Origin: Candidatus Babeliales bacterium
GTDB lineage: Bacteria > Babelota > Babeliae > Babelales > JANWKD01
Assembly: GCA_963762115.1 (NCBI GenBank)
Contig: CAVXJH010000007.1
Location: 64,001-128,000, forward strand
Direction: 5' to 3'
DNA length: 64,000 bases
In this document: positions 15,784 to 61,097 of the stretch, in pieces
Numbering within the stretch: the first letter of the stretch is position 1
Layout of the letters: each line of letters opens with the position of its first letter
The notes under the pieces: generated by a model
Told to the model about the DNA's origin: nothing
Database searches by the model: none
Seen by the model: only the letters and a program-made list of their open reading frames with translations
Position numbers and translations under genes: made by a program

Positions 15784-17400
15784 ATGCAAAATTCTTGGGT
15801 CGTGCTCATACCACCACTTCTTGTTCTTACTGCAGCTTTTGTTACTAAACGAGTATTGCTTTCACTCTGCTTGGGTATAATAACCGCTTGTTTTATCATA
15901 GCTGATCTTTCAGTGATCCATGCGGGATCCATTCTGATACAAAACTTGCAAAAACAGATATTCAATACTGACAATATATATACGTTTATCTTTCTTATTG
16001 CCTTAGGTTCTCTCATAGCATTATTAAGCCACACCGGCGGCACCACTGCCTATAGCACAATCATGGCCAAAAAAATTTCTGATGCAAAAAGTGCTGAATC
16101 AGCAAGCCTACTTTTATCATGCTTGTTGTTATTTGATGATTTTTTTAGCAGCATTACCGTTGGTTGCATTATGCGCCCACTCACCGATCGCTTTAAAATC
16201 CCCCGAGCAAAATTAGCTTTTTTAATTGATTCAATGGCAGCCCCTTTGGTTGTTCTTATTCCTGTTTCAAGTTGGATCGCCACCCTCACCATGCAACTGC
16301 ACAAATCTGGCATATCGCAAGATTTATCTGATAACCCTTTAATTCTTGCTGATCCATTTTCATTATATTTGCACATTATTCCTTATATTTTTTACTCATT
16401 TATTATTATGGCATCTGTTTTATTTATTGTACGCAAACGCATTTCTTTTGGACCCATGCACAAACAAGAAGCAATTGCACAAAAAACGGGCAATCTTTAT
16501 GGCGGTAAAAAACCATCAAAAAATATCGATAAAAATTACTGCCCTGTTGATCATGGTTCATTAATCGATTTCTTTTTACCAATTGGCTTATTATTATTCT
16601 CAGTATTTTCAGCAATTTTATATGCTGGCAAGTATCATCTTTTTGGCGGCAATCATTCATTATTAAAAGCATTAGCATCAACTGACATTTTTTTTGCGCT
16701 CTGCACCGGCACCGTATTTACGCTGATTACCAGTTTTATATTTTTTTTGATTAAGAAAAAAATGCATTTAAAAGATATTTTATCATTAATCAAAGAAGGC
16801 GTTCAACTTATGGGTCCTTCTGTTGCTATTTTATTCTTTGCTTGGACATTCAGCAGCTTGCTTATTCATGATTTAAAAAGCGGTTCTTATTTGGCTTCGC
16901 TCGTTGTTGGCAATATCATACTCCCTTTATTGCCGTGCATTTTTTTCATAGTGTCAGCAATTACTTCGATTGCAATTGGTTCATCGTGGGGCACTATTGC
17001 CGTTATGGTCCCTTTAGCAACACCAATGCTTATACAATTACTCGGCATACAAACGCCCGCAACACCCGAACAGGTATATTTATTATTGCCTTTGCTTGGT
17101 GCTGCTTTTGCTGGTGCAATTGCCGGCGATCATATTTCGCCAATTTCCAGCACAACAGTTATGTCCTCAACCAGCAGCGGTGCATATCACACTGATCATG
17201 TGTATACACAATTTATGTATGCCTTACCAGCGTTAATTGCCACCATTATTGCCTATCTTATTGCCGGCTTTCTTGCAACTTACAGTAATGCTTTAAGTTT
17301 AATCGCATTACCAATTGGCATTATTTTGTCTTTAAGCATGCTTTATATAGTGAATATAATTGCTCATAAAAATGGCTCCAAAGCCGCCAAAATTGACTAA
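15784..17400 (+). CDS. NhaC-family (Na+/H+ antiporter / amino-acid transporter) membrane protein
   Basis: About 12 hydrophobic segments; FDDF, MRPLTDRFKIPRAKLAFLIDS.AAP, GSSWGT, GDHISPISSTT.SS motifs. Confidence 0.85.
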   Translation: MQNSWVVLIPPLLVLTAAFVTKRVLLSLCLGIITACFIIADLSVIHAGSILIQNLQKQIFNTDNIYTFIFLIALGSLIALLSHTGGTTAYSTIMAKKISDAKSAESASLLLSCLLLFDDFFSSITVGCIMRPLTDRFKIPRAKLAFLIDSMAAPLVVLIPVSSWIATLTMQLHKSGISQDLSDNPLILADPFSLYLHIIPYIFYSFIIMASVLFIVRKRISFGPMHKQEAIAQKTGNLYGGKKPSKNIDKNYCPVDHGSLIDFFLPIGLLLFSVFSAILYAGKYHLFGGNHSLLKALASTDIFFALCTGTVFTLITSFIFFLIKKKMHLKDILSLIKEGVQLMGPSVAILFFAWTFSSLLIHDLKSGSYLASLVVGNIILPLLPCIFFIVSAITSIAIGSSWGTIAVMVPLATPMLIQLLGIQTPATPEQVYLLLPLLGAAFAGAIAGDHISPISSTTVMSSTSSGAYHTDHVYTQFMYALPALIATIIAYLIAGFLATYSNALSLIALPIGIILSLSMLYIVNIIAHKNGSKAAKID

Positions 17401-17960: not shown

Positions 17961-18146
17961 GCACAAAAATGCCTTCTTATAAATATCTTTTTCCAATTGG
18001 AATTTTATTGTCTTTAAGCATGTTTTATATAGTGAATATAATTGCTCAAAAAAAATGATTCCAAAGCCGCCAAATTTGACTAATTTTGGCGATTCTCTAT
18101 GATTAATAATGCTATAATGTCTTTTTTTTCTAAATTGAGGTCTTTT

Positions 18147-44965: not shown

Positions 44966-46717
44966 ATGTTAAACAAAAAACTACTTTTATCAATTATTTT
45001 TTCATGCCTCACTTATTCAGGCATGCAGGCTATGGAGGCTTTGTCATTGGAAGAACCTAAAGAAAATGAAGCACACGTTCTTAACGATAATGATATAGTC
45101 ACTATTCAATTAACCTACAATTTTAAACAAGAAAAAGAATATGATAAAACAATGTATCAACCTAAAGATAATGACGATTATAACATCAATTACGAGGTAA
45201 CAGTACCATATAAAATTATTAAAACATGTTCGTTATTACGACGTGATATCTCTCATGAAAATACCATTATCACCATTCCTGCCACCGATATTTCTATAGA
45301 AATGTTTAAATTTATTTTAGATTTGCTCAATATATATTCCGATGATCAATTAACAAATGAGATCAAAATACAAAAAATACACGAATTAATAAAAAACAAT
45401 GAAGAAAAACTTTTTCAATTACTTGATGCAGCTAATTATTTGAATTGTGAACCAATCTATAATGCAGCGAGTCATATTATGACACAAAAACTTGAAAGCT
45501 TAATTTTTGAAAAAAATAATTTGGCAGAAGCTCTTGCATTAGCAAAATACATCAAAAAGAAAACCAATCATTATTACAAAATATTTGAATATTTATGTGA
45601 TACTTCAAAATATAAAACTGAAATCAAAGCAATTGTTAAATCAATACAAGCGTTGGAAGAAACTGAAATTATTAATTCAATATGCTTTTCTCCAGATAAT
45701 AAAACACTTGCTTATACACGTATCCCAAACGATACCGCCATAAAACTCTGGAACATTAGCAATGATGAACACTCATCAATGCCAAAAATAGATAATTTTA
45801 ACATCGGGTCAATCAATTTTTCTCATGATGGCACAAAAATCGCTTCAGGTTCTTGGAATGGCAACATAAAAATATGCGATGTAAATTCAGAAACCTGTTT
45901 AATCGATCTACAAGGACATACAACTTGGGTAACTTCAATATCTTTTTCTCATGATGATACTAAACTTGCATCTGCTTCTCATGATAACACCATAAAAGTA
46001 TGGGATGCTAAAACGGGTGAATGCATATCTACTTTCCAAGAAAATGATCGAGTTCTCTCAGCCTGTTTTTCACCTAATAGCAAAATTCTTGCTTCAGCTT
46101 CCAAAAATTTTATAAAATTATGGGAAGTTTCATCGGGGAAACAGCTACAAATCCTTAATGGTCATAACAATGAAATTAGGAACATTTGTTTTTCCCCAGA
46201 CGGCACAACAATTGCTTCATCTTCTCTAGATGCAACGGTAAAAATATGGGATACATCTTCTGGAAATCTTTTAAAAACTTTAGAGGGCCACAAAAGATCC
46301 ATACCTTCTGTTTGCTTTTCTCCTGATGGCACAATAATTGCTTCCGGTTCTTTCGATAGAACAATAAAAATATGGGATGCGTCTTCTGGAAAATACTTAC
46401 AAACGATCAAAGATACCGGCCAAGTTCGCGCCATGTGCTTTTCTTCTGATGGCAAACTTGCTAAAGGATGTAATGAAAAAAATATACAGATTTTTACTTT
46501 TCATGATCTCAAGAAAGAGTTCAATCTTTCTACTTTACTATTGCTTGAATATTTGATGTATCATAAGGAACATAATTCATTACCAGCATTATCACAACTT
46601 GATCCATCCATGCAAGGATTATTCTTGTTGTTACCAGAAGCATTCCAAAAAATGTTTACCGATATGCCTGCAACTAACGATGTTCCCACAACAAAGTCTA
46701 ACTGCTTAGTTAGTTAA
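44966..46717 (+). CDS. Secreted Skp1/BTB-POZ-like + 7x WD40 protein with a C-terminal CaaX box
   Basis: AGGAG RBS; signal ...GMQA|ME; LFQLLDAANYLN; seven WD40 repeats (e.g. GH..V.S..FS.D...LASAS.D.TIKVWD); ends CLVS. Confidence 0.85.
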   Translation: MLNKKLLLSIIFSCLTYSGMQAMEALSLEEPKENEAHVLNDNDIVTIQLTYNFKQEKEYDKTMYQPKDNDDYNINYEVTVPYKIIKTCSLLRRDISHENTIITIPATDISIEMFKFILDLLNIYSDDQLTNEIKIQKIHELIKNNEEKLFQLLDAANYLNCEPIYNAASHIMTQKLESLIFEKNNLAEALALAKYIKKKTNHYYKIFEYLCDTSKYKTEIKAIVKSIQALEETEIINSICFSPDNKTLAYTRIPNDTAIKLWNISNDEHSSMPKIDNFNIGSINFSHDGTKIASGSWNGNIKICDVNSETCLIDLQGHTTWVTSISFSHDDTKLASASHDNTIKVWDAKTGECISTFQENDRVLSACFSPNSKILASASKNFIKLWEVSSGKQLQILNGHNNEIRNICFSPDGTTIASSSLDATVKIWDTSSGNLLKTLEGHKRSIPSVCFSPDGTIIASGSFDRTIKIWDASSGKYLQTIKDTGQVRAMCFSSDGKLAKGCNEKNIQIFTFHDLKKEFNLSTLLLLEYLMYHKEHNSLPALSQLDPSMQGLFLLLPEAFQKMFTDMPATNDVPTTKSNCLVS

Positions 46718-46743: not shown

Positions 46744-46777
46744 AAAGAGCCGTGTTATATATAACACGGCTCTTTTT
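46744..46777. terminator. Bidirectional intrinsic terminator
   Basis: AAAGAGCCGTGTTATATATAACACGGCTCTTT palindrome. Confidence 0.85.
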
Positions 46778-46787
46778 ATGCTAATTT

Positions 46788-46880
46788 TTATAAAAAATTG
46801 AGAAAGAAATGTTCGAAATATGGCGAAATGCCATTTTTAATATTCCAATCAATTGTTGTAATTTGATTATGCGCACTTTT
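46788..46880 (-). pseudogene. Displaced or duplicated 3' end of the holA-like gene (30 codons + stop)
   Basis: Translates KSAHNQITTIDWNIKNGISPYFEHFFLNFL*; 48397-48492 translates KNAHDQITTIDWNIKNGISSYFEHFFLNFFK*. Confidence 0.92.
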
Positions 46881-46928
46881 ATTAAACACGCTTTTTTCTT
46901 TTTATAATTTTTATTCTCAATTTTTCAA

Positions 46929-47270
46929 TTAAAAATTTAGTTGTTCTTGTAACTTTAACCAATACTGTTCAAGTTTTTGATACATTACATGCTCTTTGTC
47001 TTTACGATTGCCAAACGATGTGCATTGAGTCGTTTCATTGTTAATAGGATAACTCATCCAACCAGAATACGATACAGATCCCTTTTCTTTATCTACACAT
47101 TTACTAACAACAAGTTCTGCTCTTTTTTCTTCATTTGTTTGAGTAAGAACTTCACGCACACATAATGTATCTTCATCAGTTTCTTTAGTTACCTTACCAC
47201 CACATTCCATGGCTGATGCCGAAAAAAATAAACCTAAACTAATACTCAACATTGCACTATATAGTTTCAT
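46929..47270 (-). CDS. Small secreted protein, paralog family member 1
   Basis: MKLYSAMLSISLGLFFSASA|MECGGKVTK..E.LTQ..YSG..KLE..W..L. Confidence 0.8.
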   Translation of the reverse strand: MKLYSAMLSISLGLFFSASAMECGGKVTKETDEDTLCVREVLTQTNEEKRAELVVSKCVDKEKGSVSYSGWMSYPINNETTQCTSFGNRKDKEHVMYQKLEQYWLKLQEQLNF

Positions 47271-47307
47271 AGTATTCCTTATGTTTGCATTACCATGATA
47301 AAATTTA

Positions 47308-47667
47308 TTATTCTACTTGAGAGTTTAAATCGTCCCAAAGACTCTCAAGCTTTTTATGATTTTCGTCTGTCATTTCATTAAAATCACCTAAACACTTTTG
47401 CTTCATGATTGGCTCACCTTCACTCTCATCTTTTTCAATTTTATCATAAACCTCTACGCCAGAATATGCTGCAAATTTCGTCTCTTGATTAATTCTCTTA
47501 GTCACACAAAGATATGTCCCATCTTCAGTATTTTCTTGCGTAAGAATTTCATATACGTATGATGTATCTTCATCAATTGATTTAGTTACTTTACCACCAC
47601 GATGCATAGCTGATGCCGAAAAAAATAAACCTAAACTAATACCCAACATTGCACTATATAGTTTCAT
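47308..47667 (-). CDS. Small secreted protein, paralog family member 2
   Basis: Near-identical signal peptide; GGKVTK, EILTQ, YSG, LGDF, KLESLW. Confidence 0.8.
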   Translation of the reverse strand: MKLYSAMLGISLGLFFSASAMHRGGKVTKSIDEDTSYVYEILTQENTEDGTYLCVTKRINQETKFAAYSGVEVYDKIEKDESEGEPIMKQKCLGDFNEMTDENHKKLESLWDDLNSQVE

Positions 47668-47680
47668 AGTATTTCCTTTG

Positions 47681-47797
47681 TTAAATTAGGACTTGAATGC
47701 ATGCGTTTAATTCTAATCAAAGAACTTCCAAATTTATAGCATGTTCACCTGGATCTTTTTTTTTAATCATTTCACCACCAAAACAACGTTTTATTTT
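47681..47797 (-). pseudogene. C-terminal remnant of a fourth paralog
   Basis: KIKRCFGGEMIKKKDPGEHAINLEVL*LELNACIQVLI* resembles the family C-terminus (C/W-L-G...LE.LW.ELN) with TGA at the Trp position. Confidence 0.6.
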
Positions 47798-47833
47798 AGC
47801 AGAATAAAAAAAAATAACTTTAATATGAACGCT

Positions 47834-47880
47834 AAAAAGAAAAGAGGCGTGCTCTTATAAAGCACGCCTCTTTTCTTTTT
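47834..47880. terminator. Intrinsic terminator
   Basis: AAAAAGAAAAGAGGCGTGCT-loop-AGCACGCCTCTTTTCTTTTT. Confidence 0.85.
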
Positions 47881-47906
47881 ATAATTTTTATTCTCAAACT
47901 TTTAAA

Positions 47907-48275
47907 TTAAGATTTTATTTGAGAATTTAATTCTGACCAAAGAGTTTCAAGTCTTTTATAACCATCACTTGTTTTATCATCAAAATCGCCTAACCATGTT
48001 TGATTAATTCCAGACAAAATATCATATGTTGAAGTTTTTTCATCATAAAACAAATCGCCAATTATACCGGAATATGATAATGCTTTTGTTTCTTTATTTT
48101 CTCGTTTACTAATAAAAAGATACTTTTGTTCTTGGTCATTTTTTTGAGTTAAAGTTTCACGTATAAATTTCTTTTCATCTTGTATCTTCTTAGTTACTTC
48201 ACCACCGCACGTCATGGCAGATGCCGAAAAAAATGAACCTAAACTAATACCCAAAATTGCAATATATAACTTCAT
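47907..48275 (-). CDS. Small secreted protein, paralog family member 3
   Basis: MKLYIAILGISLGSFFSASA|MTCGGEVTK, ETLTQ, YSG, LGDF, RLETLW. Confidence 0.8.
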   Translation of the reverse strand: MKLYIAILGISLGSFFSASAMTCGGEVTKKIQDEKKFIRETLTQKNDQEQKYLFISKRENKETKALSYSGIIGDLFYDEKTSTYDILSGINQTWLGDFDDKTSDGYKRLETLWSELNSQIKS

Positions 48276-48396
48276 AGTATTCCTTTTAATTATAAAGATT
48301 ATTCTTTAGTCAATGTTCATTGAACATCACATGGGAAAAATATCACTAAAATCTAAAAACTTCAAGAAACGATTAATTAAAGATGCACATTACAAT

Positions 48397-49335
48397 TCAT
48401 TTAAAAAAATTGAGAAAGAAATGTTCAAAATAGGAAGAAATACCATTTTTGATATTCCAATCAATGGTAGTTATTTGATCATGTGCATTTTTAAGTTCAA
48501 TCAAATTCACACTTCGCCAATCTTTCTGCACAAAAGAAAAAGGAAGGCGAAACGCACTTTTTTTTGCTTGCGCAAAGTCTTTTTTTTGCATTAATTCAAC
48601 AAAACAATAAGCACGAAAAAGTTGTTCAGACCAGTAGGTCGTCCAAAAAACATCGCCATAATCATCTTTAATGGCATGCCAAAGTTTAAAAAATTCTCGA
48701 TCTTGTTTTGCAAAAAAATAGCTACTCAAAGTAAATAACGATTTTTCTGGCACCATAAGCGCATCAAATAACTCTGCAACGTCACCATCAATTTTAGAAC
48801 CTAACACAAGTGCATAGTTCATCAATAAACATGCATTCTCAAGTGAAAGAAATTTATATTTTCTAAAAAACGAAAGCACAACCTGGCTTTTAGCCTTAGT
48901 GGCATATTCAGGAAAAAATAATGAAAATAATTGTATATATAATTCAAGATCAATATCATTGGGAAGCTCTACAGCGTGAATTTTGGCAATTAATGGTTTG
49001 TCAGTAAAAAAATGTAATGTATGCGGCCCTTCATACTGCTCAAAATAACTTTGCAAGTTTAATTGTTGTTTAGCATCAAGACCAATAAAATCAGTAAGCC
49101 AGTAAAAATAATTTGTTCCCAAGAATGACATTTCTAAATGCGATTTATAAGAAAGATCGTGCACAATATTTTCACAATCTAATGATTGAATTATATATTC
49201 ATTTTTTTTGTACACTTGTTTTAAATGATAAAAAAATAGTGCGGGATATTTTTTACCTACAAAGCAAAAAACTGGCGGTAGTTTCCTACTTCCAGTTTTA
49301 TCAGGTAATATGCTAAGAAATGCAATAAAATCCAT
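48397..49335 (-). CDS. holA: Probable DNA polymerase III delta subunit (divergent)
   Basis: 312 aa; pattern VFCFVG..., SFLG...(cf. SLFG), ...FTL...F, terminal D..IKNG typical of delta; 3 bp downstream of rph. Confidence 0.55.
   Translation of the reverse strand: MDFIAFLSILPDKTGSRKLPPVFCFVGKKYPALFFYHLKQVYKKNEYIIQSLDCENIVHDLSYKSHLEMSFLGTNYFYWLTDFIGLDAKQQLNLQSYFEQYEGPHTLHFFTDKPLIAKIHAVELPNDIDLELYIQLFSLFFPEYATKAKSQVVLSFFRKYKFLSLENACLLMNYALVLGSKIDGDVAELFDALMVPEKSLFTLSSYFFAKQDREFFKLWHAIKDDYGDVFWTTYWSEQLFRAYCFVELMQKKDFAQAKKSAFRLPFSFVQKDWRSVNLIELKNAHDQITTIDWNIKNGISSYFEHFFLNFFK

Positions 49336-52666: not shown

Positions 52667-61097
<8,431 letters not shown>

Follow-up and report, generated by a model that had tools for sequence, protein, structure and literature searches.

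This account concerns a stretch of 64,000 nucleotides (called the window from here on) from a Candidatus Babeliales bacterium, covering positions 64,001 to 128,000 of contig CAVXJH010000007.1 in assembly GCA_963762115.1, and within it a locus where the 3′ end of a core gene, likely holA, is present twice, the two copies being separated by a block of small paralogous genes. The genome, designated G000 where it must be told apart from others, comprises 1.53 Mb in 7 contigs. Read along the minus strand, the order is pnp, rph, a 312-residue anchor gene (48397–49335), three small paralogs, a second tail of the anchor gene, a hairpin and a convergent WD40 gene. The first paralog, p1 (47907–48275, minus strand), codes for 122 residues with a signal-peptide-like start and belongs to a narrow family; after it come, on the same strand, a terminator-like hairpin usable on both strands (T1, 47833–47881), the degenerate remnant of a fourth paralog (about 47680–47790, between T1 and p2, found by local alignment to the 3′ end of p1), p2 (47308–47667, 119 residues), p3 (46929–47270, 113 residues), a cut terminator consisting of an upstream motif and a 5′ arm (T2, 46869–46928), and the stranded second tail (46788–46880), which has its own stop and no start codon. 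A second complete terminator-like hairpin, T3 (46744–46775), separates this tail from the gene for the WD40-repeat protein (44966–46717, plus strand), which has 583 residues and again a signal-peptide-like start.

That the anchor gene is holA, encoding the delta subunit of DNA polymerase III, is likely but weakly shown. Pfam gives no match, and the NCBIfam holA model (TIGR01128) matches at an E-value of 0.003 and 17 bits, i.e. below its cut-off of 80; a predicted model of the protein (pLDDT 67) matches folds of the AAA+/clamp-loader type, with Bacillus delta (3zh9, E 3e-4) standing among ORC and RFC proteins. The gene is matched in 38 of the 41 genomes searched, with one full copy in each, and a profile of its C-terminus finds matches in 234 of 261 genomes of the order.

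The two tails and their terminators

The attached tail consists of the last 30 codons of the anchor gene (48403–48492, minus strand; residues 282–311), and it aligns without gaps to 46791–46880 at an offset of 1612 nt, with 87% identity over 90 nt and an E-value of 3e-24 in a search against the whole genome. With the codons in register there are 8 synonymous differences and 4 changed residues (N>S, D>N, S>P and F>L), and the distal stop falls one codon early; a preliminary description of this DNA, made from the letters alone, had reported these same figures, and recounting gave them again. In terms of single bases, the differences over the 30 codons are 9 synonymous and 4 non-synonymous. The codon-aware comparison that had been proposed there as a check yields a dS of 0.61–0.97 (about 0.7), a dN of 0.06 and a dN/dS of 0.06–0.10 across three transition weights (Fisher p 1e-4), and the silent divergence of the tails is much the same as that between the holA genes of G000 and of L037, a relative at 81% protein identity (dS 0.69 over the gene).

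A local duplication with neutral evolution of one copy was simulated, conditioned on 7–9 silently changed codons (954–1944 runs per setting); the median outcome was 11–12 amino-acid changes, and the probability of seeing 4 or fewer was about 0.02. All 4 of the distal residues occur in intact orthologs, of which 9 were compared, as against 10–12% for random change: S283 and N286 are found in P0007 and P0071, P301 in P0009–P0012 and L311 in P0009, and the ortholog P0010 ends at the same codon as the distal tail. Because its divergence is species-like, its dN/dS low and all four of its residues present in intact orthologs, the distal tail would be a real allele of another lineage. The view already taken in the preliminary description, that both tails evolved under selection as working holA ends in different lineages, is thus supported, by a dN/dS of about 0.08 and the ortholog residues as well as by the synonymous excess pooled over other genes that is described below.

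The two complete hairpins are mutual closest matches in the genome, with 4 mismatches in the arms (5–6 or more for others) and two compensatory pairs, which bears out the relationship previously suggested for the terminators at 46744 and 47834. Calculated with their flanks, the folding energies are −22 kcal/mol (46744–46775) and −34 kcal/mol (47833–47881). The half-terminator reported at 46884–46920, matching 47861–47897 at an offset of 977, is likewise present; what can be added is that T2 goes on resembling the full hairpin for some 12 imperfect nucleotides past the point where the distal tail begins, as far as about 46869. These last 12 or so nucleotides of T2 would represent the illegitimate joint, which cannot be placed to a single base because it lies inside the overlap. 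A 10-nt A/T motif present at the F>L change and the early stop also precedes both upstream hairpins, and the terminator module, not a pair of substitutions, may be their source. The idea that S283 likewise derives from the terminator is weakened, since P0007 and P0071 carry this residue.

Stranded tails at other core genes

The scar is not peculiar to holA. In G000 and in G001, a relative of the same genus, whole core genes were used as queries (two matches of one repeated gene family at C3:2315 being excluded). In G000, 13 of 695 core genes proved to have stranded 3′ tails, 17 in all, situated on the gene's own strand 0.6–4.6 kb beyond it and matching it to less than 80 nt from its stop codon (15 of the 17 to within 13 nt), with one comparable 3′ piece in the upstream comparison; G001 has 8 tails at 8 of 695 core genes, different ones from those in G000, while G022, which belongs to another family, has 10 tails at 9 of 435 core genes, and 2 upstream pieces. 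Anchors identified by Pfam include TamB, MurB, RodA/FtsW, AspS, GpsA, Maf, GidB/RsmG, an Na+/H+ antiporter, YdjM and a PASTA protein, and further anchors are a helicase (read as priA) and a metallophosphoesterase (read as sbcD). Tail lengths run from 25 to 210 nt with a median of 66 (n = 25), plus one of 399 nt in G022; the upper limit is a soft one, as pieces callable as open reading frames would be filtered out. Some genes carry stacks of tails of unequal length, namely tamB with three (99/96/59 nt) and maf and rodA with two each; the further stacks measure 77/54 and 66/60 nt. At tamB (C6:76729–84095, L041) the tails of 99, 96 and 59 nt show 14 silent changes and 1 other, and when all tails are pooled the silent and other changes number 69:42 in G000 and 45:23 in G001.

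An independent holA tail occurs in G194, where 102 nt at 99% identity (L132:752–853 and 1507–1608) lie around a ParE/ParD-like pair, the joint falling within about 3 codons of that in G000. Two matches to the holA tail are found in 5 of the 234 genomes, the one in G194 being a real stranded tail; the second match in G101, on another contig and at its edge, and those in G026 and G148, marginal (E about 1e-3) and far from holA, were not counted. As for what the scars enclose, 17 of 21 cargo genes are non-syntenic in G001, and 19 of 21 have a signal-peptide-like start by a crude hydropathy rule, as compared with 173 of 680 core genes; they encode ankyrin, DnaJ and unknown proteins.

The joints themselves show a further regularity, in that the DNA to the left of the joint is in some cases a second copy of DNA found further downstream (6 of 22 tails in G000 and 2 of 8 in G001, against 0 of 30 in an upstream control). 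In G000 five loci are involved, namely PASTA/gpsA (entering twice, once from each side), aspS, murB, the antiporter and the copied tamB joint. A tandem arrangement of two alleles is plainest at PASTA/gpsA (C3:560199–563886, L048): the two genes converge, and their fused tails meet back to back with a different cargo gene on either side. For aspS, murB and the antiporter, the sequence fused to the anchor tail is the upstream region of the next conserved gene. holA falls below threshold in this particular test, and the homology of the cut T2 to both T1 and T3 is consistent with a fusion of this type. Such remnants of flanks imply that the unit involved is composed of the end of the left flank, the cargo and the start of the right flank, i.e. 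that one lineage's variable interval has come to lie beside another's. The overlap at the joints amounts to up to about 12 imperfect nucleotides (holA), about 1 nt (PASTA/gpsA) or a few nucleotides (aspS, antiporter), and no shared motif could be seen at them by eye. Two of the stacked tamB tails begin 3 nt apart and have a common left flank, so that here one joint was copied.

Two more specific ideas about the joints were rejected. A mechanism confined to 3′ ends is unsupported, as duplications on the promoter side of 5′ borders are about equally frequent: in G000 some match, dispersed repeats included, is seen for 29 of the 264 borders at 5′ ends and for 34 of the 286 at 3′ ends. A dif/Xer site at the holA joint was considered; the 11-mer at the joint has 35 matches in the genome at no more than one mismatch and lacks a second arm, and the other joints are without it.

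A second scar lies in the window itself, where the 3′ end of the Na+/H+ antiporter gene (15784–17400, plus strand) is repeated 590 nt downstream (17990–18083, plus strand) in frameshifted form. Each copy of this tail is followed by a small secreted-protein paralog, and the joint carries the copied upstream region of the next conserved gene. In G022 there are tails lying 51–79 nt behind their gene without any cargo (1101951–1102012, 1127118–1127153 and 1221685–1221718), one of them with 10 silent changes and 1 other.

Parental layouts and the probable fusion of two alleles

The empty site that the preliminary description had suggested looking for does exist: in G001 (60% identity) holA and the WD40 homolog lie 5 nt apart with no cargo between them. 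The other layout is found in L037, where holA is followed by a related spacer and then by a broken ortholog of p1. P0003 (p family) and P0010 (holA) are both listed on a contig of 79,977 nt, and if, as we infer, this is the same contig, linkage of holA and p at 71% is suggested. In addition, strains in sequencing runs X2 and X3 have the attached tail together with p1 at about 94–97% identity, that in X2 also having p2 and p3 at 90–94%; depth over the WD40 gene is near zero in both runs, although missing contig cover does not prove absence. A contig from X2 leaves the attached tail at 48404 for a different hairpin, and the depth bins suggest no matching holA body, so that the strain in X2 may have a stranded holA tail of its own. 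These layouts (L037, X2/X3, P0003/P0010) indicate that linkage of p genes with holA is old in the genus, which speaks against a recent foreign import of the block. Of the earlier proposal that it was imported from a relative and integrated additively, the additive part is supported. Judging from these arrangements, the window appears to hold both parental layouts, holA–WD40 and holA–cargo p, in tandem.

The explanation favoured here, with a probability of roughly 70%, is that the two holA ends are alleles from a pair of related lineages, each followed by its own cargo, and that host recombination, not an integrase, placed them in tandem. It is preferred because the tails show species-like divergence under selection, each parental layout is found alone in relatives, a cut terminator is fused to about codon 282 in a short overlap, and the arrangement recurs at unrelated core genes. 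Uptake of the relative's DNA would have been by natural transformation (matches to ComEC and DprA exceed the cut-off in this genome, and both are likewise present in 10 of 14 control genomes); homologous recombination would then have joined one end at the end of holA or just upstream of it, while the other would have been joined illegitimately via microhomology, either as linear DNA (homology-facilitated illegitimate recombination, HFIR) or after trimming and circularisation followed by one crossover. The outcome would be an intact holA with both cargoes retained. That only short, diverged repeats are seen may reflect a survival filter, because longer, near-identical repeats would loop the cargo out. 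The position of the homologous crossover could not be found from identical runs or site patterns, and the linear and circular routes are not separable.

A number of points weigh against this explanation. No crossover patch is visible: across 28 tail pairs, the longest stretch of identity does not exceed what chance would give (combined p 0.07). In four sequencing runs neither a read nor a contig spans the joint at 46869–46884 (nor is the empty form seen there), and no strain pair was found that shows the fusion event itself. The pooled silent excess, for which P is 5e-8 in G000 and 2e-7 in G001, rests on an assumed local-duplication ratio of 0.55 and on counting stacked tails as if they were independent, and finding tails by similarity favours conserved ones. 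An identical scan of 500 kb of E. coli K-12, in 50-kb windows, found a tail at 1 of 415 genes (a prophage relic), from which the 29 of 2893 in three Babeliales genomes does not differ significantly (p 0.09). Decay is evident in some tails, and others are followed by the same DNA as the attached copy; those of the antiporter, the first at maf and the one at C3:93774 could be local duplications. Of the 27 amino-acid differences in G000 that an outgroup can polarise, 26 arose on the stranded copy; this points to decay after stranding, which local duplication would predict too, and it is the synonymous excess that separates the two. Finally, classical HFIR, as far as it is set out in the sections available of Amarir-Bouhram et al. 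2011 (PMC3240628), is an insertion with deletion of recipient DNA, and gives no duplication.

Within the fusion of two alleles there remains the matter of direction. We lean towards the attached tail and the p genes having come in, as in the preliminary description, with the reverse only somewhat less probable, so that taken over all explanations the reverse keeps a sizeable minority share. In the reverse case holA–p1–p2–p3 would be native, and the distal tail, T3 and the WD40 gene would have arrived anchored downstream. The sister strains lean this way: those in X2 and X3, 90–97% alike, combine the attached tail and p1 with near-zero depth over the WD40 gene, the linkage of holA and p is old, and of the 12 anchors with a reciprocal ortholog in G001, 3 (gpsA, aspS and tamB) share the anchor-proximal block with that genome. 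Against it, G001 has holA–WD40 without cargo and 7 of the 12 anchors have an empty site there (the other 2 having other cargo). The comparison of tail with body that had been suggested points in the same direction: in the body of holA 26 sites side with P0007 and 6 with L037, and S283 and N286 of the distal tail are again as in P0007, whereas the last 38 residues of the attached gene lean towards L037 (2 versus 3), albeit with a p of 0.08 and a breakpoint picked post hoc.

A simple local duplication of the holA end, by unequal crossover or a long target duplication as the cargo arrived, with the distal copy then left to drift neutrally, is improbable at this locus. It would account well for the few tails elsewhere that are frameshifted or contain stops, for those that repeat downstream DNA too, for the 99% identity of the tail in G194, and for amino-acid changes being mostly derived on the stranded copies. 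At holA itself, however, it has to contend with the simulated probability of about 0.02 and with orthologs containing all four changes, as well as with the compensatory changes between T1 and T3, the existence of both parental layouts and the pooled synonymous excess.

Less probable still is that an integrase, since lost or working in trans, inserted the block site-specifically and supplied a surrogate gene end. Integrative elements such as e14 at icd restore the 3′ end of a protein gene in this way, and the anatomy here is similar, in that the target is completed by a surrogate end, the old end is stranded, and relatives have an empty site; the holA joints of G000 and G194 lie close together, as do the starts of two tamB tails. 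Unlike such elements, which have an integrase and a fixed crossover core, the block contains p1–p3 as its sole genes, and neither feature was found here: the genome has only two tyrosine recombinases (PF00589), both on contig C3, which agrees with the earlier remark that no integrase is in view (serine recombinases were not searched by family). There are also at least 13 unrelated target genes, stacked tails are unequal, the joints vary and have no common sequence, and the likeness of the tamB joints is that of one joint copied, so the comparison with att-site restoration made in the preliminary description does not hold. An assembly chimera of two co-occurring species is very improbable, for although the assembly shows signs of frameshift errors (a split rpoC) and no contig bridges the joint, pieces from run X1 match at 99–100% on both sides with equal depth (2.3–3.5; the assembly and X1 are perhaps not independent), p2, p3 and holA also stand in a second record together with an identical but split WD40 gene, there is no long repeat at the joint, and the pattern recurs in three other genomes.

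Precedents, cargo and neighbouring features

Taken singly, the holA scar is ordinary within its class. Scars of this kind are already known from integrase islands and from the arrays of rhs, contact-dependent inhibition (CDI) and type VI secretion system (T6SS) loci; no prior genome-wide account of such tails at housekeeping genes was found in the literature searched, which left out most subscription papers and supplements. For the C-terminal displacement of rhs genes, Jackson et al. 2009 (PMC2935791) give, in the portions of the paper available, a two-step model with a circular intermediate and no integrase. As in the rhs loci they describe, the incoming piece would carry a short stretch of conserved anchor and push the resident 3′ end downstream, and stacks form in the same orientation; by contrast, the rhs tip is the variable, functional toxin part, whereas here the conserved end of a single-copy housekeeping gene would be swapped for a near-synonymous version and the novelty is the cargo behind it. 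Nor are the present anchors (holA, murB, rodA, aspS, gpsA, maf, tamB and others) polymorphic toxin cores with immunity genes like those of Rhs, CdiA or T6SS.

In Vibrio cholerae, T6SS effector–immunity modules are displaced sequentially, and HFIR has been proposed (Kirchberger et al. 2017, PMC5361080). To judge from the parts of that paper to hand, the likeness would extend to additive gain, a homologous anchor with an illegitimate end, older modules pushed back and no integrase, and the difference is that three dedicated clusters are involved there, with selection for keeping immunity genes, as against many unrelated core-gene ends with secreted cargo here. The E. coli events of Amarir-Bouhram et al., so far as the available text describes them, arose from trimmed and recircularised donor DNA, the anchor being duplicated in 56 of 60 clones (109–950 bp in the 14 sequenced); the fusions here would share with them one homologous and one illegitimate end, with microhomology of 0–10 nt in E. 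coli, but those events come from laboratory conjugation with identical anchors, while the anchors here are 80–100% alike and the duplications 25–210 nt. Transformation-induced merodiploids of Streptococcus pneumoniae also keep two alleles in tandem copies (Johnston et al. 2013, PMC3784515); in the available part of that study they span 100–900 kb between insertion sequence (IS) repeats, as opposed to 0.5–5 kb here with no IS at the holA joint.

A wider proposal, which we consider doubtful, is that in Babeliales core-gene borders serve as the docking points of a distributed system without integrases: scars at about 1% of genes would mark the sites, each fusion would stack the secreted, probably host-directed, genes of two lineages and not exchange one set for the other, and cargo would loop out as a circle and re-insert at the same gene end in a relative. 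If true, this would be a main route of effector gain, and of the origin of tandem paralog arrays, in these bacteria, which are described as parasites of protists (PMC6561590, PMC4776705). In any event, additive gene gain without mobile elements leaves in such scars a trace that can be counted, and since each scar keeps a piece of the other parent's allele, donor distance (here at species level, dS about 0.7) and stacking order can be read from a single genome. The question of how small, host-confined bacteria with few mobile elements gain and stack secreted genes thereby becomes testable.

It is likely that the stranded tail is a passive scar, and that what is selected would be the secreted cargo. 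The predicted structure of p1 is a beta-meander with a C-terminal helix. No family was found for p1–p3 in Pfam and no usable match in the Atlas, a library of 1.84 billion proteins contains only 7 members of the family, and none of the 261 genomes of the order other than G000 has a match. The model (pLDDT 74) has no Foldseek match at E ≤ 0.001, the best Z of 5.7 being within the common range, and a match to Shiga-toxin B (E 0.035; 14 bits against a cut-off of 204) lies over the signal peptide and was taken as chance. P0002, a relative of p1 at 84%, has a C-terminus like that of p3, a sign of recombination among paralogs (compare 47907–48275 with 46929–47270). For the WD40 protein, the homolog search returned the identical split copy, one relative at 39% and nothing else.

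Elsewhere, a 374-residue gene in G001, enclosed by a core gene and that gene's stranded tail (848354–850085), is 94% identical to C5:7951–9084 of G000, against a genome average of 68%, and is possibly a mobile gene. An array of about 8 secreted paralogs in G000 (C6:349000–361600) has a common 3′ end of 36–41 nt. A dispersed repeat of about 90 nt near gene borders has 50–65 matches in G000 (e.g. C3:558380–558846), and another has about 100 in G001. At L053:2640–4112 a gene of the MavL-like ADP-ribosylhydrolase family stands beside a weak stranded tail of an FAD oxidoreductase. Lastly, rpoC in the window (52667–56198, minus strand) is split into overlapping frames, probably by an assembly frameshift; in G001 it is also split, at different places.

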